In this document: one piece after another, positions 19,885 to 52,304 of the stretch
Numbering within the stretch: the stretch's first letter is position 1
Layout: every line of letters starts with the position of its first letter
IMG/VR virus record: IMGVR_UViG_3300045988_061467
Location: 1-56,045 of that record
Source of the DNA: a virus
Strand: one strand, 5' to 3'
Length of the DNA: 56,045 bases
Notes under the pieces: generated by a model
What the model was told of the DNA's origin: nothing
Databases searched by the model: none
Seen by the model: the letters and a program-made list of their open reading frames with translations, nothing else
Translations under genes and position numbers: made by a program

Positions 19885-20878
19885 AGTAGCTTTTAACAAA
19901 TTCGAGATCGCTATATTTTTCAGTTTTCCCTGAAGTCAGATCGTCATACCAAGCGTCTAATACATCATTAGGCTCTCCGTCTACCCATCCTCTTAACTCA
20001 TCAGCGATTTCTTCGAGTGAGTTTTCGTACCATATAGTTTGATAGCACATTCCATTAGGATGGTCGAAAGGACATTCTTCGATAGGAAATACTTCACCAT
20101 CGAGGTCGATACAGGCTTGACAAGTTCGACCTGGAGCGTGTACTGAGTGCCATTGAACTTTTCGAGCATAAGGATTAACCTTGCCCCATTGCCTCACTCC
20201 AGCTGTGGCTGAGTGGCTAATAGTAGTTCGAGCAAGTCGAAGGGCATTATATTCGAGATTTTGATATCTGTGAGCAGTTGGTTTTCCTAATGTTTCCGCG
20301 ATTTTATCGAAGTCCCATTCTTTTCGAGCTTTTGGATCAATGTACTTTTCGAGCATTTTAGCCATGTCGACTGCAGACATTCCACTTGCTAGGCCTTGTG
20401 TGACGATTTGTTGAACGTCATTTCCTGCGCGTGCTGCATTAGACCATACACGTTTCGATAGATTCTTTCCATCTTTGTAGATTTCACCTTTAGTGACTAC
20501 TTCAGCAGCTCTACGGCTAAAGACTAATGATGCTGCCCGTACTTCCTTTTCGAACTTTTCAGCTGTTGCGTTGCCATCTTCCCCTAGAATGTTCAATAAA
20601 TGTAGAACTTGTCCATCTATGGCGTTCTCTGCGGCCTTTTCGGAGTATTCGTGCATGACATGAACTAAAACTTTATGAAGGTCATAGGCGTAGTCTTTAT
20701 AGATGCGTTTAGGTAGGTAGCCATTTCGAGATTTTCGAATCTTTTCTATTAAAGTGTTCCCTGCGTCATTAAATGCTTTTAAAACAGCTTCCTCTTGTTC
20801 AAGGGTCAATTTAATGTTGGTCTCGTGTATAGCTTTTTCCCAACTACTGAGATACCCATTCTTTTTCTCTTTTCTCAA
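19883..20878 (-). CDS. Minor capsid / head morphogenesis protein (SPP1 gp7 / Mu F-like)
   Basis: The C-terminal HAPGRTCQACIDLDGEVFPIEECPFDHPNGMCYQ is a typical Phage_Mu_F ending. The start is a TTG at 20878 with AAGGAG 7 nt upstream. Confidence 0.7.
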   Translation of the reverse strand: MRKEKKNGYLSSWEKAIHETNIKLTLEQEEAVLKAFNDAGNTLIEKIRKSRNGYLPKRIYKDYAYDLHKVLVHVMHEYSEKAAENAIDGQVLHLLNILGEDGNATAEKFEKEVRAASLVFSRRAAEVVTKGEIYKDGKNLSKRVWSNAARAGNDVQQIVTQGLASGMSAVDMAKMLEKYIDPKARKEWDFDKIAETLGKPTAHRYQNLEYNALRLARTTISHSATAGVRQWGKVNPYARKVQWHSVHAPGRTCQACIDLDGEVFPIEECPFDHPNGMCYQTIWYENSLEEIADELRGWVDGEPNDVLDAWYDDLTSGKTEKYSDLEFVKSY

Positions 20879-21281
20879 TGTTCAGCTCCTTTTTCAATTT
20901 TGCAGTAAGGCCTGAAATCTTATGACCAGCGTCTTCGTCCTTCATTCGATATTCATGGTAAAGGTTTTGGTTCATTGCTGGACCTTTTTCTAATTCCTTT
21001 TTCATTTTGTTACGACATTCATTTCTAAATCGAATGAGTTTTTCGATCTCTTTATCGCCGACATAAGTAGTGAACCTATAATGACACTTAGGACATTCGA
21101 AGAATCTCCACTCTACGCCTCTTTCGATATGTTTCGAAATGATTTGTTTCGAAGATAGTTCGAATTTATGTTCACAATGGTCACAGTTGACATCAAAGAC
21201 CGTTTTAGATTCGATCTTGGGCTTGTTGCTCTTCTTGTCCTGGCGCACTTGGTTCTTCAATTGTTTCTTCTTGTTCTTCAT
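20844..21281 (-). CDS. Zinc-ribbon protein (about 145-152 aa), start uncertain (ATG 21281 or 21302)
   Basis: Carries CDHC...CPKC (two CxxC pairs). The basic N-terminus is encoded inside the 3' end of the portal gene in another frame. AAGAGGA lies 7 nt before the ATG at 21281. Confidence 0.5.
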   Translation of the reverse strand: MKNKKKQLKNQVRQDKKSNKPKIESKTVFDVNCDHCEHKFELSSKQIISKHIERGVEWRFFECPKCHYRFTTYVGDKEIEKLIRFRNECRNKMKKELEKGPAMNQNLYHEYRMKDEDAGHKISGLTAKLKKELNIEKREKEWVSQ

Positions 21282-22947
21282 GTTGAGGTTCCTCTTGTTC
21301 ATTTAATTCTTCTGCTAATACTGGTAGGGCGCCTGCGGAAATTTCATCCAGTTGCGCAAGTTCTTCTAATACACGTTCCCACTCTTTATCAGCTTTTTCT
21401 TTCTTACTGAACTCTTCGATATAAGATTGGTGACTTCGAACGTTTGTCTGTACTTCAGTAAGTGCAGTCTGTTTAGCAGAAAGTTCGTCACTTGGTAATG
21501 GATAACGATGCTCAATTGATAACGTTGTTAGTGTCTGGTAGCTTGATTGAATGTCTTGGGGTAAAATGCCTAAGTCGACTGATACTTTACCTAAGATTTC
21601 TTCTAATAGTTCAATAAGCCATTGAATAGCGTCATCCCATTCTGCCCACTTGTCATCACATTTACTCATTAGGTCATAGAATAGATATTGCATTGCAATT
21701 CCAGATGGCGCATCTTGTACTTTTTCAGGTAGTGGCTGGTCCATGAGTTCATACATGGCTTTCTTGGCTCCATCTAAATAGTATTGAGCAGTAGGTAGGA
21801 AGTTGAAGTTTCCGGAAATAGTAGTGACTTGAGCCTGCTTCCCTCCTGCTCCGCCAATTGAGGACGTAGGGTCACTCTTAATATCAACAAGTGCATTAGG
21901 AGCAATCTTCATTCCTTGAATTGATTTCGAAGATCCGTCAATAATAACAGGTTGTTCGAACATTTTAAATCGAAGTGAATCGCGCATGTCACTAATAGTT
22001 CGGTTCGTGTTATCCGCGATAGTGATTAAGTCTTTGACGTCGCTTGTACCATATACATCATTAGTAAGTGGTTCATTTAAAATGACTTTGCAAGGAATTT
22101 GACTAAGTCCAGTTGGCGCTGACTCTTGAACTTTTAATGGTACTTGAACTTTATTACCTAAATTGTCTTCGATTTCAATTAGTTTAGCGTCTTTTTCTTT
22201 AATTGTAGTTTGACCGTCTTCTGTCATGTAGATTTGGTTCGAAGTTCCGTCAGTCAGCGTGTAGGTGATCCAGCATTGCTCTTCGACATCTTCTAGCGCC
22301 GTGGTGATCCCAGAATTCGAACTTCCTGATTTCATTTCATAACGGTAGTGGTGCCATAATTGCTTTTCAGTAGACATTCCTTTCGTACGCTCGTCTTGAT
22401 AAACAATGTCAACGGACAATAGACGTGAAGGATCTTTAGGATCTACTATATATGAAAATTGCGGCATTGAATAAAACTGAACATCAATTGACTCGCCTGG
22501 GTTTGCAATAACGGATAATAGAACTCGTTTACCTACTGTCGCATCTACGAGAGCTCGTTTACATTTACTCCAGAACTTTGCGTGAGCTAAAATATGGTCG
22601 AATAAAATTCGCTTATTCTCCGCCTTATCGTCTTCTTTGTCTACAATAGGACTGAAGATCAGTTCAGGCTCAGTTCCCATCATAAAGCGTGCTTGCTTTT
22701 TAATGAGGGATCGAATGTAGTTTCGAATTTCTCGAGTAGGTGTATAGTCAAGTGAATCTTCTTTTATCTTCCACGTTTGACCATAGTCAGTATTCAAGTC
22801 CGTTACATCATATCCGTCGAAGTATTGATAATACTGTTCGACTTCCTGAAGTTCCTTTTTGAACTTTTGATTTTGCGCCAACGGGCTGTCAAAGGACTGA
22901 CTGACAAGCTCGTCGGTATGGGAAATAGCTTTTGATTTTTTAGCCAT
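21205..22947 (-). CDS. Portal protein (SPP1 gp6-like)
   Basis: 580-aa ORF directly after terL, with an acidic C-terminal tail (EEPQHEEQEETIEEPS). Confidence 0.8.
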   Translation of the reverse strand: MAKKSKAISHTDELVSQSFDSPLAQNQKFKKELQEVEQYYQYFDGYDVTDLNTDYGQTWKIKEDSLDYTPTREIRNYIRSLIKKQARFMMGTEPELIFSPIVDKEDDKAENKRILFDHILAHAKFWSKCKRALVDATVGKRVLLSVIANPGESIDVQFYSMPQFSYIVDPKDPSRLLSVDIVYQDERTKGMSTEKQLWHHYRYEMKSGSSNSGITTALEDVEEQCWITYTLTDGTSNQIYMTEDGQTTIKEKDAKLIEIEDNLGNKVQVPLKVQESAPTGLSQIPCKVILNEPLTNDVYGTSDVKDLITIADNTNRTISDMRDSLRFKMFEQPVIIDGSSKSIQGMKIAPNALVDIKSDPTSSIGGAGGKQAQVTTISGNFNFLPTAQYYLDGAKKAMYELMDQPLPEKVQDAPSGIAMQYLFYDLMSKCDDKWAEWDDAIQWLIELLEEILGKVSVDLGILPQDIQSSYQTLTTLSIEHRYPLPSDELSAKQTALTEVQTNVRSHQSYIEEFSKKEKADKEWERVLEELAQLDEISAGALPVLAEELNEQEEPQHEEQEETIEEPSAPGQEEQQAQDRI

Positions 22948-23004: not shown

Positions 23005-24393
23005 TTAGCGCGCACCTTTACCTGATAATACTTGGATTTCGAAACCAAAGTCGTCATTGATGATGGCGTCAGTAAGGCAGGCGTACCTATTACGGTCCAT
23101 ACAGTGGTCATTCTCTTTAATGACCTGATCTTTACCAATTTGGCTGGCCTTACTGTCCCAGCTATATGAATAATATTCATCTATGTCGTGCGTGTTGCTT
23201 GGATCTAATGTAAAGCGTCCCTCGGTTAAGAGTTCAGCGTGAAATGAAATTCCGAGTGTCACATCATTTCGAGCAGGAATGATAGGAATGTTCTTTCTTA
23301 CTATATAAGGATGCTTTTGAAGTTCGACAATCATTGCAGCCGCTGAAGGGTCTAGTATGATGTATTCAATAGGAAGTCCTCTAATCATTTTTACTAGATC
23401 ATTTGCATATTCTTTAGTTGTCTTTTGAAGTATTGAACTGAACTGAACATTAGCATTCACATCCGCCTCAGTGAGTTGTTCTTCCGCCTCGCGCCCTGAG
23501 TGGTAGTATGATTGAATTAAATGGTAGTGCTTGTGACGTTTCGAGAATCCATAAAGTCCAAAGGTAGTGGCGTTATAGATACCAAAGTCCCCTGCGACGA
23601 ATAATCGATCAAATTCTATGTCTAGGGGTCGAACATGCTGCTCTTCATTAAACATTGAATAAACAAGTCCATCCGCTGTGACCCAAAGGCCTAAAATGAA
23701 TCGCTTACGGAAAACACCTGCATACATTTTAGAATAGCGCTCTTTGACGTGTTCACTAAGACTAGGATTATCATCCATTGTAAAGTGAAGATATAGAATA
23801 CGTTTTTCGAGTTGTTTATCAATCCAATTCTTTTTGAAATAGTGATTTGGATTTGCCGGGTTACAAGAGAACCACATTTTCGAACCTTCTACTGAACAGC
23901 GCCCTGTGGCCTGGTTGACAAAGGATTCAGGCATCAGTGCCACCTCATCACAAAAGATCCCAGCTAGTGTGACCCCTTGAATAAGGTCTTGGCTCGACTC
24001 ATCTTTTCCTCCGAATATATAGAAGTAATTGACTATTTCTTCTCCGTCTCTAAAGTGTCTAATAATAAGTAGATTTTCATTTCGGACATCTCTTATTTCA
24101 TACCCGCGACTTGTGAGCATTTGTTTTAGAGGCTGAATAACATTCCGTCTAGCTGAGTGAATTGTCTTTCCGCAGATGGCAAAGTTTTGTCCATTGAATT
24201 CCGTCATGGCCCAAAGCGAAAATGAAAGAGCCATGGATACTGTCTTCCCTGAACGAATTGACCCGTCTGCTATGACGATATCGAAATCTCGAAAAGGGGA
24301 TCCTTTTGTCCACCATGTTAATAATTGAAGCTGTTTCTTGCTAAAAGGAACAAAGTTGAATCTAGGTAGTTTATTTCTCAGGCTTGTTATCAT
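23005..24393 (-). CDS. terL: Terminase large subunit (PBSX / Terminase_3-like, headful type)
   Basis: Walker A-like ADGSIRSGKT, a DE motif (GIFCDEVA) and a C-terminal nuclease half. It sits in the terS-terL-portal order. Confidence 0.85.
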   Translation of the reverse strand: MITSLRNKLPRFNFVPFSKKQLQLLTWWTKGSPFRDFDIVIADGSIRSGKTVSMALSFSLWAMTEFNGQNFAICGKTIHSARRNVIQPLKQMLTSRGYEIRDVRNENLLIIRHFRDGEEIVNYFYIFGGKDESSQDLIQGVTLAGIFCDEVALMPESFVNQATGRCSVEGSKMWFSCNPANPNHYFKKNWIDKQLEKRILYLHFTMDDNPSLSEHVKERYSKMYAGVFRKRFILGLWVTADGLVYSMFNEEQHVRPLDIEFDRLFVAGDFGIYNATTFGLYGFSKRHKHYHLIQSYYHSGREAEEQLTEADVNANVQFSSILQKTTKEYANDLVKMIRGLPIEYIILDPSAAAMIVELQKHPYIVRKNIPIIPARNDVTLGISFHAELLTEGRFTLDPSNTHDIDEYYSYSWDSKASQIGKDQVIKENDHCMDRNRYACLTDAIINDDFGFEIQVLSGKGAR

Positions 24394-25111
24394 TGTCAGT
24401 TACTCCTTTAATGTAGGAACCTGTTGCTTCACTAAATTCTTGCCAAACGGCTTGAGCTGCTTTATCTAGTGCTTCTACGAAGTTATCTTTGACTTCACCT
24501 TCGACTTCTTGGTCGCCCATTTTGGCCCGGAGCAATGTAATTTTATCGCGCTCAATTTGTAGTCTATATCGAACTTCCTCAGGCAACATTCCATTTGCTC
24601 TTTCTTGTCCTTTTTGAGCTCTGTCTATAAGGTTCGAAAGTACATCTAATGCGCCCCATCTAATATTTCCTTCTTTAGTAAATAAATATCTATCAGGATT
24701 ATCTAAGCACATTTCGACGATGTTCATTAGTTTTTCCCAGGCGGCGTGATATTTAATATTGACTGATACTTTAAACCCTGCATACATTTGAGTCAAAGTA
24801 TCATTAGTAACAAGAGCCTTTTCATTCTCGAACTCTTTCTTAGCCTTGACCCATTTATCGCGAGCTCTAATTTCGCCAACACGTTTTTCCGCCATGCCAT
24901 AACGGGCAGCAATTTCCTGAATAGTCATGCCTCTAATAAATTCCAATTTCATTCTAGCATCACGTTCCTTAATTGTCATCTTAATGCCTTTATAGTCATA
25001 TTCTATATATTGGTCTTTATCGACACGCGCATTCGCTTTTATTCCCTTTTTGCCTTTTGGCCGTGAAGGAGTTCTTCCTTTTCGAACTTTTGGTCCAGTA
25101 GCTTTCGCCAT
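24371..25111 (-). CDS. terS: Terminase small subunit
   Basis: Basic N-terminus and an HTH (MTIQEIAARYGMAEKRVGEIRARDKW). It is the first gene of the late block and overlaps terL by 23 nt. Confidence 0.7.
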   Translation of the reverse strand: MAKATGPKVRKGRTPSRPKGKKGIKANARVDKDQYIEYDYKGIKMTIKERDARMKLEFIRGMTIQEIAARYGMAEKRVGEIRARDKWVKAKKEFENEKALVTNDTLTQMYAGFKVSVNIKYHAAWEKLMNIVEMCLDNPDRYLFTKEGNIRWGALDVLSNLIDRAQKGQERANGMLPEEVRYRLQIERDKITLLRAKMGDQEVEGEVKDNFVEALDKAAQAVWQEFSEATGSYIKGVTDNDNKPEK

Positions 25112-25143
25112 TTATTGACCCTCCTTTATAATTTATCGTTTAC

Positions 25144-25172
25144 ATTGTAACAAATTTGCGCGTGACTTACAA
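25144..25172 (-). promoter_or_regulatory. Putative late-operon promoter upstream of terS
   Basis: Minus strand reads TTGTAA (25167-25172)-17 nt-(TGt)TACAAT (25144-25149), ~30 nt upstream of the terS RBS. Confidence 0.5.
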
Positions 25173-25222
25173 TTGACTGAATTTATAGTCCTATAATGAG
25201 AAAAAGAGTGATTTTGAAATTA

Positions 25223-25509
25223 AACCGGTTGAACTAATACGGTAATATTTTCCGTTTTCGAGCAGTTATTTTGAGGTCGATTTTTCGAAAGATTGAGGTT
25301 TTCGAACCGGTTGAGTTTTTCGAGCATTTCCCTGAGTTTTTCGAGCATTCTCGACTTTTCAAACCGGTTCGACTTTTCGAGAAATTGAGGTTTTCGACCC
25401 CTTTTTTATGCTCGACTTTTCGAAGATTCTGAACTTTTCGACCCGTTTTTTGAGGTCGATTATTCGAGCATTCTCGACTTTTCGAGTGCTTTTCAGTCAG
25501 TATCGAAAA
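25223..25509. repeat. Dense short-repeat array (TTTTCGA iterons, AACCGGTT palindromes, nested 13-20-bp direct repeats); candidate pac, ori or activator-binding region
   Basis: Ten perfect TTTTCGA start at 25255, 25282, 25299, 25317, 25338, 25374, 25391, 25417, 25435 and 25479. Variants lie at 25356 and 25461, and an inverted copy at 25503. AACCGGTT occurs at 25223, 25305 and 25362. The 20-mer TCGAGCATTCTCGACTTTTC occurs at 25341 and 25464. Confidence 0.8.
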
Positions 25510-25699
25510 GTTCAAACTTACTAATTTTACGGTATTTGAGAGCATTTTTAGATTTTGTTTGTAGAAGTGCTTCTTTAGGTCTCTCATTCTATATTCAGTA
25601 GTTCATTCGAAAGTTTGCTAAATGCTTATCTAATTAGTGTTTGCTGTGTATTATTTGTTGATAGAATTGTTTATTATTGATAAAGGTCTCGACTTTTAT

Positions 25700-25854
25700 G
25701 TCGCCCCTAATTTTTGTTTATACTTACGGACTATGGCGTTTATAGGTATTTTGGGCGCCTTTATTTTTAGGGCCTTGTTAAGTCCTTTTTCTATATTAGA
25801 TTGACTATAAATGAGGGTAAAAATAAGTATGAAATAGCACTTGTTTTTGGCGCC
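25700..25854. promoter_or_regulatory. Three G(G/T)CGCC boxes embedded in T-tracts within the AT-rich divergent intergenic region
   Basis: ttttatGTCGCCcctaattttt (25700), attttgGGCGCCtttattttt (25754) and gtttttGGCGCCcatttttt (25849). These GC hexamers stand out in otherwise AT-rich non-coding DNA. Confidence 0.5.
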
Positions 25855-25920
25855 CATTTTTTAATTTTTAAATAGTTCAAAAAAAAATTTAAAAAAGTTC
25901 GACTTTTTACACAAAAATGC

Positions 25921-25949
25921 TTTACATTATTCGTTCATTATCGTATAAT
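25921..25949 (+). promoter_or_regulatory. Family-1 (early, sigma-A consensus-like) promoter, plus-strand copy 1
   Basis: TTTACA-17 nt-TATAAT with an upstream A/T tract. About 90 bp, including the leader and RBS (aagaggtaaNcaaaATG), is duplicated at 27880-27970. Confidence 0.7.
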
Positions 25950-25983
25950 CATAATATAAATAAAAATAAAAGAGGTAACCAAA

Positions 25984-26388
25984 ATGGAAAAAGTTCTTAA
26001 TTTCGCATACGTCACTCCTAAGTGGACAGACAACAAAAAAGGATATAAGTTTCACTTCGAAAGTATTCGAGTAAAGGAAACTGAAAAACAATATAAAGTA
26101 ATTAAAACTAACCCTAACTTATTTTTGGACCTAGGTTCAGTTATTAAAAAAGATGAATTAGATCACAGAGCAGTATCTAAAGCTTGCGGTTTTTCTGAAG
26201 TAGGAATAACTATTGTAGATGGAAGTCTAATAGATGCTAAAATGGCTCTCGTTACTAAAATCGGTGAACGTATCTCTTATATAAAAGGAAGAATGCAAAG
26301 CCGAGCAGACAAAGGAAGAGGTGAAAGCAGTCACTTAACAAAACAGATGGAAGATTGCGCTAATCAACTCATAGCTATTTATGCTTAA
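25984..26388 (+). CDS. Hypothetical protein (134 aa)
   Basis: First ORF after the family-1 promoter, with RBS AGAGG. No recognisable motif. Confidence 0.6.
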   Translation: MEKVLNFAYVTPKWTDNKKGYKFHFESIRVKETEKQYKVIKTNPNLFLDLGSVIKKDELDHRAVSKACGFSEVGITIVDGSLIDAKMALVTKIGERISYIKGRMQSRADKGRGESSHLTKQMEDCANQLIAIYA

Positions 26389-26402
26389 CGAGGAAGTGTC
26401 CA

Positions 26403-26723
26403 ATGAAACTTTATCACGCCACTAACTTTGAAAATTTAAGTGATATCCTAGACGAGGGCTTGAAGCCTTCGTTTGGGGTTATCTATTTTGCTGAGAGTTA
26501 TGAAAAAGCTCTTGCATTTTTAGCCTTACGCTCTATTGATGTAGTTGTGTTCGAAGTTGAAGTTGATATTGAACAATGTCAGGAAAGTTTCGACCATAGC
26601 GGATCAATGTTTTGTCGACTATTTAATTTTGACAATTGTCGCGCCTGGACTTACGATAAGCCTATTGCTCCTGAAGATATTGACTTCAGTAAAGCTCGAG
26701 TCTATAATAGGAAAGGAGAATAA
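26403..26723 (+). CDS. Hypothetical protein (106 aa) with a possible minimal ADP-ribosyltransferase-fold N-terminal motif
   Basis: MKLYHATNFENLSDILDEGLKPSFGVIYFAESYEKALAF resembles the LYHG[ST]...GL / FG-x-FY-x-[ST] opening motifs of H-Y-E-type ART-fold families. This is motif-level only. Confidence 0.25.
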   Translation: MKLYHATNFENLSDILDEGLKPSFGVIYFAESYEKALAFLALRSIDVVVFEVEVDIEQCQESFDHSGSMFCRLFNFDNCRAWTYDKPIAPEDIDFSKARVYNRKGE

Positions 26724-27094
26724 TGGGAAATAAATGGAAGGTCATTCATTTTCAGAATTCCTGTATTAAACAAGTAGACGATGAAAAAAGACGTCTACTT
26801 TTTGAGGTGCCCGGAACTCCTTATCGTCTAAGAGTTTGGGTGAAAATGAGCCTAGTTAAAATTGAAACACGCGCAGGAAATGGCTATTATAAGGAACTAA
26901 TATATCAAGACGATTTTGTATTTTATGGTAAGGAGTTAATAGATGGTTATTTAATTGACGCCACCATAACTGGCAAATCTTTGGCGGAATATTGTGAGCC
27001 TATGAATAGACATATTCTCGAAACTATTGCATCGCGAGAAGCAGCTGAATTAAACAGAGCTAAAAAGCTAGACCAACAGAAATGGAGATATTAG
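26723..27094 (+). CDS. Hypothetical protein (123 aa)
   Basis: Its ATG overlaps the upstream stop (TAATG), suggesting a translationally coupled cassette. Confidence 0.55.
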   Translation: MGNKWKVIHFQNSCIKQVDDEKRRLLFEVPGTPYRLRVWVKMSLVKIETRAGNGYYKELIYQDDFVFYGKELIDGYLIDATITGKSLAEYCEPMNRHILETIASREAAELNRAKKLDQQKWRY

Positions 27095-27095
27095 T

Positions 27096-27848
27096 ATGGC
27101 AAAAAATAAAAAACGGAAAAAAGTCAATGTTAAAAGGAAAATGCTTATCCCTACAAATATCTCGAAAAAGGTAAATGTAAAAGCAATTGCTTATCGAAAA
27201 GTCACAGTTAAATGGCTTCCTAATACAGATGAAATCCAAGTATATTTCGACCTTTATATGAATAAAAATAGGCTCACTATGTTAGGCACTATTGACCCGG
27301 ACAGGAGCTATTTTGAAGGAATTAGAATTGTTTGTAGAAACCCGCAGCCTTGGATGACTGTTAAGGAGCTCCAGGTTGCGCGTGTAGACGCCCCAGGTTT
27401 TTTTGCAGTTCTTAAAGCCTATTGTCATACAGTCGGAGACGTACTAGACAACGGCGCAGAGCCTGATGAAATTGTTCCTGGTATTATGTATAAAGGTGGT
27501 GAACTATTTAAGGACAGTGAAATTGTCAGCCTTTTCAAGTACGATGTCAAAGAGCCTTACGAGTTTCCAAAAGATACTCCTATAACTGCTGGCAACTTCA
27601 AGGATTTTATTATGTCTAGCCAACATACTAGAGCACTTGTTTTAAGGTGTGCTAATATAGGTGAGTTTTCTACGAACTGGAGGAAGTGGCAAGCATCTAT
27701 CCAGGTTCTGCTCGACTATGCCAAGGCGGATGACTTTACAGTAGATGAAACTGTTTGGGACTTTTCACCTGGCTCTAAAGCTGGAAAGATAGCACGTCGA
27801 AAGGGTTATGAAGCAATTCAACAATCCCTTGAGCTTATAAATCAATAA
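27096..27848 (+). CDS. Hypothetical protein (250 aa) with a strongly basic N-terminus
   Basis: The ORF begins MAKNKKRKKVNVKRK and is followed by a terminator. Confidence 0.55.
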   Translation: MAKNKKRKKVNVKRKMLIPTNISKKVNVKAIAYRKVTVKWLPNTDEIQVYFDLYMNKNRLTMLGTIDPDRSYFEGIRIVCRNPQPWMTVKELQVARVDAPGFFAVLKAYCHTVGDVLDNGAEPDEIVPGIMYKGGELFKDSEIVSLFKYDVKEPYEFPKDTPITAGNFKDFIMSSQHTRALVLRCANIGEFSTNWRKWQASIQVLLDYAKADDFTVDETVWDFSPGSKAGKIARRKGYEAIQQSLELINQ

Positions 27849-27875
27849 CGTAGCTTCGGCTCGTTATTTTTTTTT
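27847..27875 (+). terminator. Rho-independent terminator after the 250-aa gene
   Basis: aacgtagc-ttcg-gctcgtt (7 bp with one bulge) followed by a run of T (attttttttt). Confidence 0.55.
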
Positions 27876-27905
27876 AAAAAAATTAAAAATTTTTACACAA
27901 AATGC

Positions 27906-27934
27906 TTTACTTTATTCACTCATTATAGTATAAT
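27906..27934 (+). promoter_or_regulatory. Family-1 promoter, plus-strand copy 2
   Basis: TTTACT-17 nt-TATAAT. The flanks are near-identical to the copy at 25921. Confidence 0.65.
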
Positions 27935-27967
27935 CATACTATAAATAAAACAAAAGAGGTAAACAAA

Positions 27968-28147
27968 ATGGCAAAAGTTAAAGATTTACAAGTAAGGATG
28001 AAAGTTGTAAACGAAAAAGGTACTGAATTTGAAGTAACTTCTCGTCAAGGTCGTAAGTGGGTAGGACTAGAACGTCTTACAGATGGACGCATTTGGTTCT
28101 ACGATAACGAAACACTTCTAGTTGAAAAGGTTGAGGTAGTAAAATGA
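27968..28147 (+). CDS. Small hypothetical protein (59 aa), absent from the ORF track because it is under 60 aa
   Basis: The ATG at 27968 is preceded by the same aagaggtaaacaaaATG RBS context as the gene at 25984. It translates to MAKVKDLQVRMKVVNEKGTEFEVTSRQGRKWVGLERLTDGRIWFYDNETLLVEKVEVVK. Its stop overlaps the next ATG (ATGA). Confidence 0.6.
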   Translation: MAKVKDLQVRMKVVNEKGTEFEVTSRQGRKWVGLERLTDGRIWFYDNETLLVEKVEVVK

Positions 28148-28350
28148 ACGAAGATCGTTTTAACATACAACCTGAGGACATACTTAACTTCATCGGTATC
28201 CTTAATACAAAGGATCCAGACTTTCATGACTGCTTAGTAGCCCGGCTAGTAAGCTCCTACACTAAAAAGGAACTTGCGTATAAAGGATTATCCTTCGACG
28301 ATTTTATTGCTGAGATTCAAAGTCAATCACTCGCTTATCTAGGAAAGTAA
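28144..28350 (+). CDS. Hypothetical protein (68 aa)
   Basis: ATGA-coupled to the 59-aa ORF and followed by the bidirectional terminator. Confidence 0.55.
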   Translation: MNEDRFNIQPEDILNFIGILNTKDPDFHDCLVARLVSSYTKKELAYKGLSFDDFIAEIQSQSLAYLGK

Positions 28351-28978: not shown

Positions 28979-29166
28979 GGCAGATAGGCGAGTATAAAGA
29001 GTGACGCATAAAACGCGATAGAGCTTACGACAGCCCCTAAAAACAGGGCGATAGGGCTTCGGTCGTCTTCTTTCTTTCCTACTACAAGATATATCATTGC
29101 AGTAGTTAGGCAAAAAGCAGAAAGGACAAAGACACTACTTAGAATAATTTTTACCATATAACTCAT
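28975..29166 (-). CDS. Small two-TM membrane protein (63 aa)
   Basis: MSYMVKIILSSVFVLSAFCLTTAMIYLVVGKKEDDRSPIALFLGAVVSSIAFYASLFILAYLP has two hydrophobic helices. AAGGAG lies 7 nt before the ATG at 29166. Confidence 0.55.
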   Translation of the reverse strand: MSYMVKIILSSVFVLSAFCLTTAMIYLVVGKKEDDRSPIALFLGAVVSSIAFYASLFILAYLP

Positions 29167-29530
29167 CAAGTTTCTCCTTTATTTTAAGTCCGTGTTTAGA
29201 GCGGATAATGTTATCCCCATCTAAAATTTCTTCAAGTGTTTCAACTGCTTTGTCTCGAAGTTGGTGAACCCATGTATAGTGATAACCAATTTCAGCTGCT
29301 GCGTTAGTGACTGGAAGGTCATCTAATACACATAGCCTCAAGACATTTCGTTGGCTTTCAGGAAAACATTCGACTAGATTGTCAATGTATCCTACAAAGG
29401 CTTCAAGGTTTTCGAGTTCTTCGCTGTTATCTTTTACAGCAAGCAGGAAGTTTATTCGACCTCTTGCACGTTGATAGTCTTTGCGAAGTTCGACAATTCG
29501 TTTGTTCATTTGCTTTCGCTGATTGTTCAT
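29135..29530 (-). CDS. ArpU/RinA-like late transcriptional regulator (sigma-70 region-4-like)
   Basis: SQRNVLRLCVLDDLPVTNAAAEIGYHYTWVHQLRDKAVETLEEIL is a region-4-type HTH. The gene sits near the distal end of the early/middle block. Confidence 0.5.
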   Translation of the reverse strand: MNNQRKQMNKRIVELRKDYQRARGRINFLLAVKDNSEELENLEAFVGYIDNLVECFPESQRNVLRLCVLDDLPVTNAAAEIGYHYTWVHQLRDKAVETLEEILDGDNIIRSKHGLKIKEKLDELYGKNYSK

Positions 29531-51029: not shown

Positions 51030-51657
51030 CTACCTCCAATCCTCTTACATTGCTTGCCTGAAAATCTAGAACCACTGAGGTATCGTAGATACGACTATAA
51101 AGCCTTTGGCCTAAAAGTTCAATAATTTCATCATCACTATAATTAGTTGTATAGATAGTTGACAAATTATTATCGACTCGATAATTAACTAGGTCATAAA
51201 GATAAGGATAAGACGCCTTGGTTAAGGAGCCCCCTCCTATTTCATCAATGACTAATAGTTCACAAGTTTTAAGTCGTTCAAACCTTTCGAGAAATTCTTG
51301 CATAGTTTGAAAATAATTGTAGTCGCCAAACTCAGTCAAAAGTTGAGCAGACACTACAAACATTCCTTTCTCGACCATTCTTCCATCAAGTGCAGTTTCT
51401 GCTAAATAGCGTTGCAAAAGTCGAACCGCCCAGCTAGTTTTTCCATTCCCGACAGTTTTCGAAGTAATAACAATGCTGAGACCATTTCGAACTTCTTCGA
51501 CTATATTTGCTCGAACAGATTCGAGCCATTCCCAACATTCCTTATCAGCTTCTCTCTCGACTAATATTTGAGGTTCGAAATACTTCTGAGGTAGTCCACT
51601 TCTCTCGAAAAGGTCATTTAACTTTTTCTTCCATATTCTATCAGCTAAATTTTCCAA
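51013..51657 (-). CDS. DnaC/IstB-like AAA+ helicase loader
   Basis: GNGKTSWAVRLL Walker A and LLVIDEIG Walker B. TTG start at 51657 with AAGGAG 5 nt upstream. Confidence 0.65.
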   Translation of the reverse strand: MENLADRIWKKKLNDLFERSGLPQKYFEPQILVEREADKECWEWLESVRANIVEEVRNGLSIVITSKTVGNGKTSWAVRLLQRYLAETALDGRMVEKGMFVVSAQLLTEFGDYNYFQTMQEFLERFERLKTCELLVIDEIGGGSLTKASYPYLYDLVNYRVDNNLSTIYTTNYSDDEIIELLGQRLYSRIYDTSVVLDFQASNVRGLEVDEIES

Positions 51658-51682
51658 CTTTTCTCCTTTTTATATTTTCGAT

Positions 51683-51709
51683 ACTATAATTTATTAACTA
51701 TAATTTATT
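51683..51709. repeat. Tandem 13-bp direct repeat (ACTATAATTTATT x2, 14-bp period) in the leader of the loader gene
   Basis: Copies at 51683-51695 and 51697-51709. The near-palindrome GGTGTATATATACC lies nearby at 51721-51734. Confidence 0.7.
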
Positions 51710-51759
51710 TCTCGATTATTGGTGTATATATACCGGCCCGAAAGAATCAAGATTGATAA

Positions 51760-51789
51760 ATTATACGCCAATTGAGGTCATTTTGTTAA
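51760..51789 (-). promoter_or_regulatory. Family-2 promoter upstream of the loader gene (~100-nt leader)
   Basis: Minus strand reads TTAACAaaatgacctcaattggcgTATAAT. The 20-nt block cattttgttaagcaaaaat is shared with 44378-44398. Confidence 0.5.
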
Positions 51790-51824
51790 GCAAAAATTTA
51801 AAAATCTAAAAATAGTCTACTTAA

Positions 51825-52304
51825 CTAATAAAATCCTTCGAATTTTGAACCCGTTTTTCCTTCGAGTTCGTCCAAAATCCAGGCTCTTTTGAAAGTCGAG
51901 ACCGTTATGAACCTTTCACTTAGGTTCAATCTTTTTCGAACCTTTTCATATTTAACAAAACTTTCTGCTAAAAATCGACAAAGTTCAAGGTTCGAGTCAA
52001 TATTTAAATACTGCTGAACTTTTTTCATTGTGCTCGAAAAGTTGAACCAGTTATAATCGATGCACTTAATATTGAAAATAAATTCGTACTGAACTATAAA
52101 GAAAGATGACACTTGCTTCATATTAGGTTCGAATTGTTTTCCGTTGAGCGCTTCAACTATTTGAAAATAATCTTGCTCGACTTTTGAAAGACCTGTTGCC
52201 ACGTCCTTCTGAAATAAGGTAGAACGAGTTTTAGGCTTGTCTTTGAATGATAGTTCAATTTCATTTTTAGGCTTTCCTGAATTGCCTATTCTTTGCCTTG
52301 CCAC
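51825..52304 (-). CDS. Hypothetical protein (159 aa), possible replisome organiser by position
   Basis: GTG start at 52304 with AAGGAGG upstream. It lies immediately upstream of the loader-helicase-primase genes. No motif recognised. Confidence 0.3.
   Translation of the reverse strand: MARQRIGNSGKPKNEIELSFKDKPKTRSTLFQKDVATGLSKVEQDYFQIVEALNGKQFEPNMKQVSSFFIVQYEFIFNIKCIDYNWFNFSSTMKKVQQYLNIDSNLELCRFLAESFVKYEKVRKRLNLSERFITVSTFKRAWILDELEGKTGSKFEGFY

Follow-up and report, generated by a model that had tools for sequence, protein, structure and literature searches.

To our knowledge, the way in which small terminases select viral DNA is poorly understood, and the pac site is undefined for most pac phages. 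Here, we ask what role is played by a dense array of short direct repeats upstream of a terS-like gene in a 56,045-nt stretch of viral DNA (the window), whose source phage is a Dp-1-like virulent Streptococcus siphophage. A first-pass annotation of the sequence had offered three roles for the array: small-terminase recognition (pac), an origin of replication, or a platform for ArpU/sigma-like phage regulators. Comparison with relatives (Dp-1, MS1, IMG/VR contigs and Logan/ENA assemblies) shows that the array is real and conserved across the clade, that its motif is lineage-specific, and that the neighbouring protein is modular.

The array lies between the late block and the plus-strand block, where the annotation had placed it, and all of the annotated counts and coordinates were reproduced (10 perfect, 2 imperfect and 1 inverted copies of TTTTCGA, three palindromes, and the nested repeats); what had been missed were the lineage-specific nature of the motif and an underlying 9-bp lattice. 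The array and its parts are:

25223 to 25509, unstranded: the whole array, kept with varying copy number in Dp-1 and IMG/VR relatives
25255, 25282, 25299, 25317, 25338, 25374, 25391, 25417, 25435 and 25479, plus strand: the 10 perfect copies of TTTTCGA
25356 and 25461, plus strand: the imperfect copies TTTTCAA and TATTCGA, respectively
25223, 25305 and 25362: palindrome AACCGGTT, with one further copy in the whole 56 kb
25340/25463, 25292/25384 and 25269/25448: nested repeats of 21, 14 and 13 nt, respectively
25255 to 25397, plus strand: left (terS-proximal) block, with 7 perfect TTTTCGA and the TTTTCAA at 25356
25398 to 25411, unstranded: central non-repeat element CCCCTTTTTTATGC, the only G+C-rich patch within the array
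25412 to 25485, plus strand: right block, with 3 perfect TTTTCGA and the TATTCGA at 25461
25503 to 25524, minus strand: right closure, an inverted TCGAAAA at 25503 followed by GTTCAAAC, near-invariant in the Dp-1 group

Against 0.15 copies of TTTTCGA expected in 231 bp, 10 are found in 25255-25485 (P(>=10) ~1e-15, estimated with a high empirical genome background), and the array is the densest 300-bp stretch for repeats in the whole sequence. Outside it, the plus strand carries 36 copies for a maximal-order Markov expectation of 33.8, so that sub-word composition accounts for the genome-wide abundance of the word on this strand. For AACCGGTT, 0.7 copies are expected over the whole window. The heptamers are the strong half of a finer lattice of about 9 bp, formed by 22 TYGA cores (25258-25482) that are spaced by 8-10 bp or multiples of this; the spectrum peaks at 9.0 bp in this phage and at 8.75 bp in Dp-1. 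By column, conservation is 0.88 in the cores versus 0.72 in the spacers, in a repeat alignment that itself favours core matching. The AACCGGTT palindromes are head-to-head junctions of TCGAAC-type units, and relatives have TCGAACCGGTTCGA at the equivalent place; the copies at 25305 and 25362 fall in the left block, which also holds interleaved TTGAG/TCGAC half-units. The right block and part of the left block make up a 44-bp super-repeat. The position of CCCCTTTTTTATGC between the blocks is kept across the Dp-1 group; lineage L202 has a comparable element where its arms switch, and we infer that CCCCTTTTTTATGC may be a cleavage or spacer region.

Relative to the ATG of the minus-strand terS-like gene, the array occupies the region from 112 to 398 bp upstream, beyond a sigma-70-like promoter, and begins about 80-85 bp upstream of the -35 hexamer of that promoter. 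Its surroundings are:

23005 to 24393, minus strand: terL, the large terminase gene, with Terminase_6N/Terminase_3 domains on homologues
24371 to 25111, minus strand: terS-like gene, a Dp-1 gp36 homologue of 246 aa, its stop codon overlapping the terL start
25144 to 25172, minus strand: predicted terS-like gene promoter (TTGTAA-17-TACAAT, extended -10 TG), without variation in the Dp-1 group
25557 to 25570, unstranded: conserved box GTTTGTAGAAGTGC, about 50 bp right of the array, single copy in the genome
25921 to 25949, plus strand: promoter-like site for the plus-strand block, TTTACA-17-TATAAT

A plausible promoter between the array and terS had been annotated, and the one predicted at 25172-25144 fits this place; its sequence is palindromic, so the plus strand reads identical hexamers. 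In MS1-type relatives, TTGACT-16-TATAAT (hexamers identified by eye) occupies the same position. The terS promoter and the 25921-25949 site bracket an 870-bp non-coding region. Within it, GTTTGTAGAAGTGC is found in every examined lineage having sequence there, regardless of the array motif, and we speculate that it could be the terminase cut site or the site of another factor. A predicted 117-aa ORF (25234-25587) had been described as a mirror of the DNA repeats, and it appears to be an artefact of them, as it has no homologue in any relative.

Dp-1, MS1 and all clade contigs and assemblies with enough upstream sequence carry a repeat array 100-400 bp in front of the terS-like gene; one short contig of the P0008 lineage, with 219-267 bp of upstream sequence, shows no clear repeats, and the more distant relatives whose protein has no N-terminal arm (L163, L166 and phiCTP1) have no array. 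The motif varies by lineage, with at least nine motifs seen (TTTTCGA, TTCGAAC, TGTTCAG, GGAAC, TTTCGG, CTGAC/GTCAG and others). In many of the arrays the repeats form two arms of roughly 70-120 bp that face opposite ways, plainly so in L202, L204 and the MS1 type, and whole repeat units are gained or lost between close relatives. Conserved cores combined with turnover of units form a pattern typical of protein-binding sites. Features expected of a pac site are present: repeated recognition-type elements (22 cores in two blocks around a unique element) and proximity to the small terminase gene, the latter here and in the relatives with enough upstream sequence. A search for three spaced copies of TTTTCGA in 596 Gb of genomes gave, among the matches listed, only chance hits in unrelated taxa, and the same pattern in viral contigs gave Dp-1-like contigs and one 3-copy coding coincidence in an unrelated phage; the matches listed in these two scans include no satellite or host copy of the array.

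The terS-like gene is directly upstream of terL and overlaps it, as is expected of a small-terminase gene. Its product consists of a Lys/Arg/Pro-rich N-terminal arm, an HTH (residues 47-108; weak PHROG hits and a sigma-70 region 4-like match), a conserved helical core and a C-tail. An AlphaFold model (pLDDT 63.5) has helices at 47-98 and long helices at 119-229, and the protein as modelled appears to fit the HTH and helical candidate oligomerisation core of a small terminase. No TerS family in Pfam or NCBIfam matches the 246-aa protein, a PDB sequence search with it returned nothing except an HTH, and Foldseek of its model, at this low pLDDT, against the PDB gave noise, with no match at E<=0.001. 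In one source, a homologue goes under the name 'middle operon regulator'. Variation is concentrated in the arm and HTH (44-56% identity), and the core is conserved (~83%); with a C-tail that tracks the TerL type, the protein looks modular from these alignments. The mosaics of group 3, which include MS1, have a Dp-1-type TerL (93% identical to that of the window, versus 80-84% in other MS1-type lineages) and a C-tail (last 21 residues) that is 57-67% identical to that of the window, versus 33% in other MS1-type lineages, together with an MS1-type HTH (96%) and an MS1-type array. In these natural mosaics, the terS-like protein thus appears to be functionally coupled to TerL through its C-tail.

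Across the natural recombination junction in these phages, the array moves together with the HTH half of the terS-like protein. Lineages that share TTCGAAC have HTHs that are 96-98% identical, compared with 46% for the sigma-like protein, 57% for gp65 and 75% for the ECF sigma, the other DNA-binding candidates. HTH type and array motif agree in most lineages, with two exceptions. Class 4 (GGAAC) and class 5 (TYGAAC) have identical HTHs and arrays that overlap only in a GAAC core, and the recognition helix of P0002 is identical to that of the window, yet its array consists of CTGAA/GCTCAG. In a permutation test, array similarity correlated with the TerS core (r 0.68), and with the core controlled for, the partial correlation of array with HTH was negative (r -0.22, p 0.98), so the co-variation of array and HTH is inseparable from physical linkage or phylogeny. 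When all proteins of the two closest lineages that differ in motif are compared, differences of 0-50% are seen throughout, and therefore no candidate binder is singled out or excluded.

Of the three roles originally proposed, pac appears to be the best supported by the comparative evidence, which disfavours ArpU/sigma regulators and is a poor fit to an origin. In favour of pac, the array accompanies the terS-like gene in the Dp-1/MS1 clade wherever there is enough upstream sequence, moves with the HTH half of its product, and is absent from the distant relatives whose protein has no arm; against it stand the negative permutation test, the lineages in which HTH and motif disagree, and the 9-bp spacing. 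We therefore put forward only tentatively, at a little short of an even chance, that the array is a candidate small-terminase recognition platform, the TerS-binding part of the pac region of a headful phage. MS1 was reported, with PhageTerm, to package by headful from a pac site (PMC5511896). In the mechanism that we propose, the 246-aa HTH protein would be made late, and many copies of it would load cooperatively on the 20-odd short sites, in two blocks of about 100-140 bp each on either side of the short unique element. The HTH would read the TYGA/GAAC-type core, and the Lys/Arg/Pro-rich arm would probably read the adjoining T-tract. The resulting nucleoprotein complex would recruit TerL through the TerS C-tail, and TerL would then cut nearby to begin unidirectional headful packaging. 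Lying right beside the terS promoter, the array with its bound protein could in addition reduce terS transcription, an effect reported for SPP1 (PMC4737164, PMC6316719).

The array may plausibly, if not quite probably, be a variant of known pac-type sites, comparable to SPP1 pacL/pacR or the P1 pac hexamers. Like it, the SPP1/SF6 pac (pacL-pacC-pacR, bound by the TerS G1P) consists of sets of direct repeats at, and spanning, the terS promoters (PMC4737164, PMC6316719). In these phages TerS has an N-terminal HTH, binds two regions (pacL and pacR) that flank the cut and represses its own production, and packaging is headful (PMC4737164, PMC6316719). SPP1 differs in having only pairs of boxes (A, B and C) and a pac that extends into the terS coding sequence, whereas here more than 20 candidate sites on a 9-bp lattice lie wholly upstream of the terS-like gene, and the protein falls outside the curated TerS families and has an extra basic N-terminal arm. 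In SF6/SPP1, the best-studied of these systems, the isolated DNA-binding domain (that of SF6) has little sequence specificity (PMC4737164), and explicit repeats are therefore no general requirement of TerS. Sites 9 bp apart do not keep register with the 10.5-bp helical repeat, and for this reason the simple wrapping around a ring of HTHs proposed for SF6 does not fit the array.

The pac site of P1 lies within the pacA gene and consists of hexamer repeats (TGATCA/G), four and three copies flanking the cut, under the control of Dam methylation of the hexamers. It resembles the array in that a very short motif is repeated many times, in one cluster to each side of a central region, and the small packaging subunit of P1 recognises the hexamers; copy number is three times higher here and no link to a methyltransferase was found. 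Lambda cosB has the sites R1-R3 for gpNu1, plus IHF, and is similar in its repeated sites for a small-terminase HTH beside the terminase genes. It differs in that the sites are three in number and 16 bp long and that cos is not a headful site, and no site for a host bending factor was recognised in the array.

An extension of the pac reading, which we consider unlikely, is that the array and the TerS arm-HTH module form a fast-evolving lock and key that splits co-circulating oral Streptococcus phages into packaging-specificity groups, through bipartite, cooperative recognition on the 9-bp lattice. The at least nine motifs do occur in phages with 80-95% identity in their other packaging and head genes. 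Under such a scheme, the HTH would serve the core and an AT-hook-like arm the T-tract, a solution unlike the weakly specific ring-wrapping described for SF6, and through recombination just inside the terS 3' end a new specificity could be joined to whatever TerL and head module is present. Selection against cross-packaging, or against piracy by satellites, could be what makes the motifs diversify.

Should the array be the recognition site, it would be an unusually explicit multi-copy one. The clade would then provide a series of naturally occurring specificity variants, with at least nine motifs matched to differing HTH and arm modules, as well as natural chimeras in which the half of TerS that recognises DNA is parted from the tail that docks TerL. 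Dp-1 and MS1 are pneumococcal phages considered for therapy, and their pac region would be defined, which bears on their transduction potential. If the array is instead an origin or operator array, a key control region would have been located in a phage group with unmapped replication and transcription programmes.

A second explanation, doubtful in our view, is that the array is a transcription-control platform, on which another phage regulator polymerises or TerS purely autoregulates, and which activates, silences or insulates two divergent promoters, one serving terS and the late operon on the left and the other the plus-strand block on the right. Its location between the promoter-like sites at 25144-25172 (minus) and 25921-25949 (plus), starting about 80-85 bp upstream of the terS -35, is in keeping with this, as are the ECF-like sigma and the sigma/ArpU-like protein that the phage encodes and the regulator name given to the terS-like protein in one source. 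Cooperative repressors that bind dense arrays of 7-11-bp units provide a precedent, for example on the omega heptads of pSM19035. Ribbon-helix-helix proteins bind heptad or short-repeat operator and centromere arrays, such as those of omega of pSM19035 and ParR/parC of R1, and these are the closest to the array in pure DNA anatomy, with 7-10 or more contiguous units of 7-11 bp, direct and inverted, located beside promoters and spaced by less than a helical turn. Here, however, the candidate binder is an HTH protein, no ribbon-helix-helix protein is confidently identified, and the phage is virulent and has no need for partition. For a cooperative repressor, of the ribbon-helix-helix or another type, the sole hint is a 56B_RHH hit below threshold in a 153-aa protein; among 25 neighbouring or early proteins, searches of Pfam, PHROGs and NCBIfam found no cooperative repressor or origin-binding protein. 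The ArpU/sigma-like regulator that had been proposed is disfavoured because group 3 and the L12 group, both of which have TTCGAAC arrays, show just 46% identity in the 131-aa protein concerned (29135-29530). Sigma factors have no need of arrays, and the array reaches at least 250 bp past any usual activator position, although by co-variation the ECF-like sigma is still compatible (75-80% identity among motif-sharing lineages).

Less likely again is an iteron-type origin, or one of two such origins as in SPP1 (oriL/oriR), bound by a phage initiator. Nowhere else in the genome is non-coding DNA strongly repetitive, and the array lies in the 870-bp non-coding region that separates divergent transcription units, an anatomy comparable to that of SPP1 oriR, where a set of direct repeats occupies an intergenic site within the late region (PMC6316719). 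Like the iteron origins SPP1 oriL/oriR and lambda ori, it offers non-coding direct repeats in a phage with its own helicase and loader. The candidate initiator is a 159-aa protein encoded just upstream of the genes for a DnaC-like loader and a DnaB-like helicase, and weak secondary clusters of array-type words occur in or beside its gene (51400-52250), including two inverted CTCGACTTTTGAA-like 16-mers. These clusters, however, consist of words generated by the LEK/FEK codons of the genome, and an equally strong cluster is present in a head-protein gene. The intergenic repeat array that the origin proposal had assumed is real, but the role itself fits poorly: the units are 4-7-bp cores in more than 20 copies on a 9-bp lattice, much shorter, denser and more numerous than 3-7 iterons of 17-22 bp; DnaA boxes are absent from 25112-25983; and the array is 60% A+T, equal to the genome mean, with no A+T-rich unwinding element adjoining it. 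The candidate initiator does not track the motif (57% identity between motif-sharing lineages), a weak test given that the initiator of the clade is not identified. An alternative origin candidate is a 75% A+T intergenic stretch with a 14-bp tandem repeat, at 51658-51824 beside the loader gene. GC skew tracks the direction of transcription and gives no origin signal.

Least likely of all are repeats with no sequence-specific partner, whether hypervariable and maintained by slippage or recombination at a mosaic junction or serving as structural DNA, a non-coding RNA or the 117-aa ORF: copy number and arrangement do shift between close relatives, the region coincides with a recombination boundary and frequent assembly breaks, and both strands fold better than shuffles (z -3.3 and -5.1), but position and architecture are retained in every lineage with enough upstream sequence while the motif is replaced, which is unexpected under neutral slippage, core columns are more conserved than spacers, and the good folding is due to the TCGA and AACCGGTT palindromes. 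A role as RNA or as the ORF is unlikely, as the latter is confined to this phage among its relatives, Rfam searches were negative both for the window at gathering score and for 25050-26050 at E<=1, and the strongest two of the promoter-like sites (25144-25172 and 25921-25949) are directed away from the array, with only 9-of-12 matches on the plus strand (25145-25173 and 25162-25189) pointing into it.

Several further observations concern the locus. Contig ends cluster in the intergenic region yet are scattered within it, and were dropped as a proxy for the pac terminus because these assemblies are sensitive to repeats; k-mer repeats and hypervariability explain the clustering, which is therefore no evidence for a physical end. 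Resemblances of the motif to CodY, CtsR, LexA (Cheo) and ECF -35 sites were dropped because the motif changes among phages of the same host group and no spacing fits. A Chi/KOPS-like polar signal was rejected because the strand bias of TTTTCGA (36 versus 8 copies) is explained by sub-word composition together with xTC-GAA-AAx codons.

Read in reverse, the region aligns with Streptococcus phage Dp-1 (HQ268735); the two have a common gene order and are 88% identical across the intergenic DNA and the junction of terS and terL. Late genes are transcribed leftward from the minus strand, a small rightward block occupies 25984-28350, and the early and middle genes (28375-56045) again run leftward; an 870-bp non-coding stretch separates the rightward block from the late operon and contains the TTTTCGA array.

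Features of the late-gene end and the intergenic region
21205-22947, minus strand, portal gene
23005-24393, minus strand, terL
24371-25111, minus strand, terS-like gene, gp36 homologue
25112-25983, non-coding stretch
25223-25509, TTTTCGA array

Cassettes of the rightward block (seen at 25984-26388 and in relatives) are shuffled: the 134-aa ORF that comes first in the window's block is placed elsewhere in relatives, adjoining the gp26 homologue, a 78-79-aa ORF that the window lacks opens the block in most relatives, and in MS1 the block opens with a homologue of window 27968-28147.

The array is real and functional-looking. All counts and coordinates of the first-pass annotation proved correct on recheck: ten perfect TTTTCGA copies (25255-25485), two imperfect copies (TTTTCAA at 25356 and TATTCGA at 25461), a single inverted copy (25503), AACCGGTT palindromes at 25223, 25305 and 25362, and nested 21-, 14- and 13-mer repeats in two copies each. 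Outside the array, TTTTCGA occurs 36 times on this strand versus 8 times for its complement, a strand abundance whose source is xTC-GAA-AAx codons; since a maximal-order Markov model predicts 33.8 copies, the genome-wide abundance is a composition effect. With this high background, 0.15 copies are expected in the array versus the 10 observed (P ~1e-15), and the stretch has the highest repeat density of the whole window. A finer lattice, whose strong members are the heptamers, comprises 22 TYGA cores (25258-25482) spaced at 8-10 bp or multiples, with a spectral peak at 9.0 bp in the window and 8.75 bp in Dp-1. Units of TTGAGK-TTTTCGA and CTCGAC-TTTTCGA alternate, and the AACCGGTT palindromes are TCGAAC-type units joined head-to-head; relatives carry a perfect 14-bp palindrome, TCGAACCGGTTCGA, at their place.

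Arrays are also carried by Dp-1, with a different number of units, by MS1, whose intergenic DNA has otherwise diverged beyond the reach of blastn, by 21 IMG/VR contigs found via the terS-like protein, by further contigs found through TerL, and by most Logan/ENA assemblies with intermediate variants of the terS-like protein. Repeats lie ~100-400 bp upstream of the terS-like gene wherever sequence suffices; in one short contig of the P0008 lineage, where the upstream sequence spans only 219-267 bp, no clear repeats were seen. No array was found in the more distant L163, L166 and phiCTP1 (protein 25-32% identical), whose terS-like protein lacks the N-terminal basic arm, and pattern scans yielded no array copies outside Dp-1-like phages among the matches listed. 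Arrays of the Dp-1 group gain and lose whole units, and their core columns are conserved at 0.88 versus 0.72 for spacers in a repeat alignment that favours cores. The dominant motif varies by lineage (L-numbers are contigs).

Dominant array motif by lineage
Window and Dp-1 group: TTTTCGA
L007/L008: TTTTCAG mixed with TTTTCGA
L144: GTTCAG
L202: CTGAA arm facing GCTCAG arm
L207: TCGAGC
MS1, group 3, L12 group: TTCGAAC, GTTC arm on the right
L011/L150: TGTTCAG
L014/L155: GGAAC/GTTCC
L208: TTTCGG
L204: CTGAC arm facing GTCAG arm

All of these motifs fit a loose YYGA(V) family, usually adjoining a T-tract, and they indicate that many arrays consist of two opposed arms, which in the clearest cases measure ~70-120 bp each, on either side of a short unique segment.

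The Dp-1 and MS1 annotations list the terS-like protein as hypothetical. It had no match in the Pfam and NCBIfam terminase families, retrieved only a sigma-70 region 4-like HTH in a profile search of PDB sequences, and gave a mediocre AlphaFold model for which no fold match was found. Nevertheless, it behaves as a small terminase. The stop of its gene overlaps the terL start, and the protein comprises a Lys/Arg/Pro-rich arm (1-45), an HTH (~47-98) and long helices (119-229), parts that evolve independently (arm and HTH 44-56% identical between Dp-1 and MS1 types, core ~83%). The Lys/Arg/Pro/Gly-rich arm (window 24977-25111, minus strand) has an AT-hook-like sequence in some lineages, such as P0013 (KRGRPKG) and the MS1 type (KRGRKP). 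Group-3 contigs, including MS1, are natural mosaics that combine Dp-1-type structural genes (92-98%) and TerL (93%) with MS1-type early genes, an MS1-type array and a terS-like protein that has an MS1-type HTH (96% to the L12 group) and a Dp-1-like last 21 residues (57-67% versus 33% for other MS1-type lineages). Thus, in these mosaics, the tail of the terS-like protein goes with TerL, and its HTH with the array. The natural recombination junction lies inside the terS 3' end (window 24371-24440 and related contigs), where Dp-1-type terL and structural genes are joined to an MS1-type terS N-terminus, array and early genes.

We tentatively read the array as the small-terminase recognition platform of a pac region, and consider this reading to stand just short of an even chance. 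MS1 uses headful packaging from a pac site (PMC5511896). In SPP1, pac consists of three sets of direct repeats spanning promoters and the start of terS, and TerS both binds pacL and pacR, which flank the pacC cut, and represses its own production (PMC4737164, PMC6316719). The ring proposed for SF6, with one HTH per helical turn, does not fit the 9-bp spacing of the array. A second precedent is P1, whose pac site has two clusters with seven hexamers in total. Position, repeat-based design and two-block layout are shared, but the array differs in packing more than 20 sites onto a 9-bp lattice, in lying wholly upstream of the gene, in a motif that changes among close relatives, and in an adjoining protein that falls outside curated TerS families. 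If the pac reading holds, the array would be a variation on a known type of pac site, not a separate kind, and would supply explicit sites, along with naturally occurring specificity variants, for the still-open problem of DNA recognition by small terminases.

The case for TerS as the reader of the array is not clean. HTHs are identical, and arms 91% identical, between classes 4 (GGAAC) and 5 (TYGAAC), and the P0002 variant has the recognition helix of the window, yet a CTGAA/GCTCAG array. In a permutation test across 20 lineages, array similarity follows overall relatedness (Spearman 0.73 with the core) and shows no dependence on the HTH after correction for the core (partial r -0.22, p 0.98); linkage alone could give an array-HTH association, because array and gene 5' end are adjacent. 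The array could instead be a transcription-control platform for another regulator, which we consider unlikely. Among lineages sharing TTCGAAC (group 3, L12, class 5), identity is 96-98% for the terS-like HTH, 75-80% for the ECF-like sigma, 57-78% for the 159-aa protein adjoining the helicase loader gene and 46-52% for the 131-aa sigma/ArpU-like protein, which counts against the ArpU-like protein and, weakly, against the 159-aa one. The closest match in DNA anatomy is to heptad-type arrays cooperatively bound by ribbon-helix-helix proteins, and no such protein was found among 25 neighbouring and early proteins profiled.

A replication origin at the array is rather improbable: iterons are much longer and less densely packed than these units, A+T content (60%) is like that of the whole genome, and no DnaA boxes were found in the intergenic region. 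Weak clustering of array-type words is seen in and next to the 159-aa gene, yet a head-protein gene contains a cluster just as strong. These clusters of array-type 7-mers, at 20151-20551 in the minor head protein gene (25 hits/400 bp, including the 12-mer TTTTCGAGCATT) and at 51400-52250 around the DnaC-like and 159-aa genes (14-17 hits; inverted 16-mers CTCGACTTTTGAAAGA at 51885 and 52176), probably arise from LEK/FEK codons. A separate A+T-rich (75%) intergenic stretch between the 159-aa and DnaC-like loader genes (51658-51824), with a perfect 14-bp tandem repeat (ACTATAATTTATTA x2), is a candidate origin or promoter region. That the array has no specific partner, or is an RNA or ORF, is very doubtful, as Rfam gave no match, the palindromes account for the favourable folding energies, the strongest pair of promoter-like sites (25144-25172 and 25921-25949) is directed away from the array, with only 9-of-12 plus-strand matches (25145-25173 and 25162-25189) pointing into it, and the 117-aa ORF across it had no counterpart in any relative. 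The remaining probability falls to something else.

Intergenic breaks upstream of terS affect an unusually large share of independent IMG/VR, Logan and ENA assemblies (L006-L008, L013, L014, L016, L018, L125, L130, L133, L155-L158, L205-L208), at scattered positions. As evidence of termini these stops were rejected, since repeated k-mers and population heterogeneity would give scattered stops; repeats and strain heterogeneity are the likely cause, so that complete genomes of the clade may often have been closed wrongly at this point.

A box ~50 bp to the right of the array, GTTTGTAGAAGTGC (25557-25570, consensus GTTTGYRGAAGTSC; flanks 25503-25575), recurs across all examined lineages with sequence there, independent of array motif; it occurs once in the genome and has no sigma-70 promoter resemblance, and contigs L155 and L208 end inside it. 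Further blocks conserved in the Dp-1 group lie at 25598-25900, including GTTCATTCGAAAGTTTGCTAAATGC, TCTCGACTTTTATG...AATTTTTGTTTWTACTTACGGAC, CTTRTTAAGTCCTTTTC and a long-range inverted GGGCGCC/GGCGCCC pair, with no Rfam hit. The terS promoter region (25144-25173) is palindromic, with TTGTAA-17-TACAAT on both strands, and its spacer contains GCGCGTG, the Lactococcus lactis Chi heptamer; this word has 12 copies on both strands versus 2 expected from base composition and 8 from a Markov model, and the spacer copy is not conserved in L007. TTCGA occurs 400 times in the whole window, both strands counted. In Dp-1, dPreQ1 is reported at 1.7% of G (PMC6884629), implying ~378 modified guanines per genome, an agreement with the TTCGA count that may be coincidence; the DpdA target might overlap the TCGA-type array cores.
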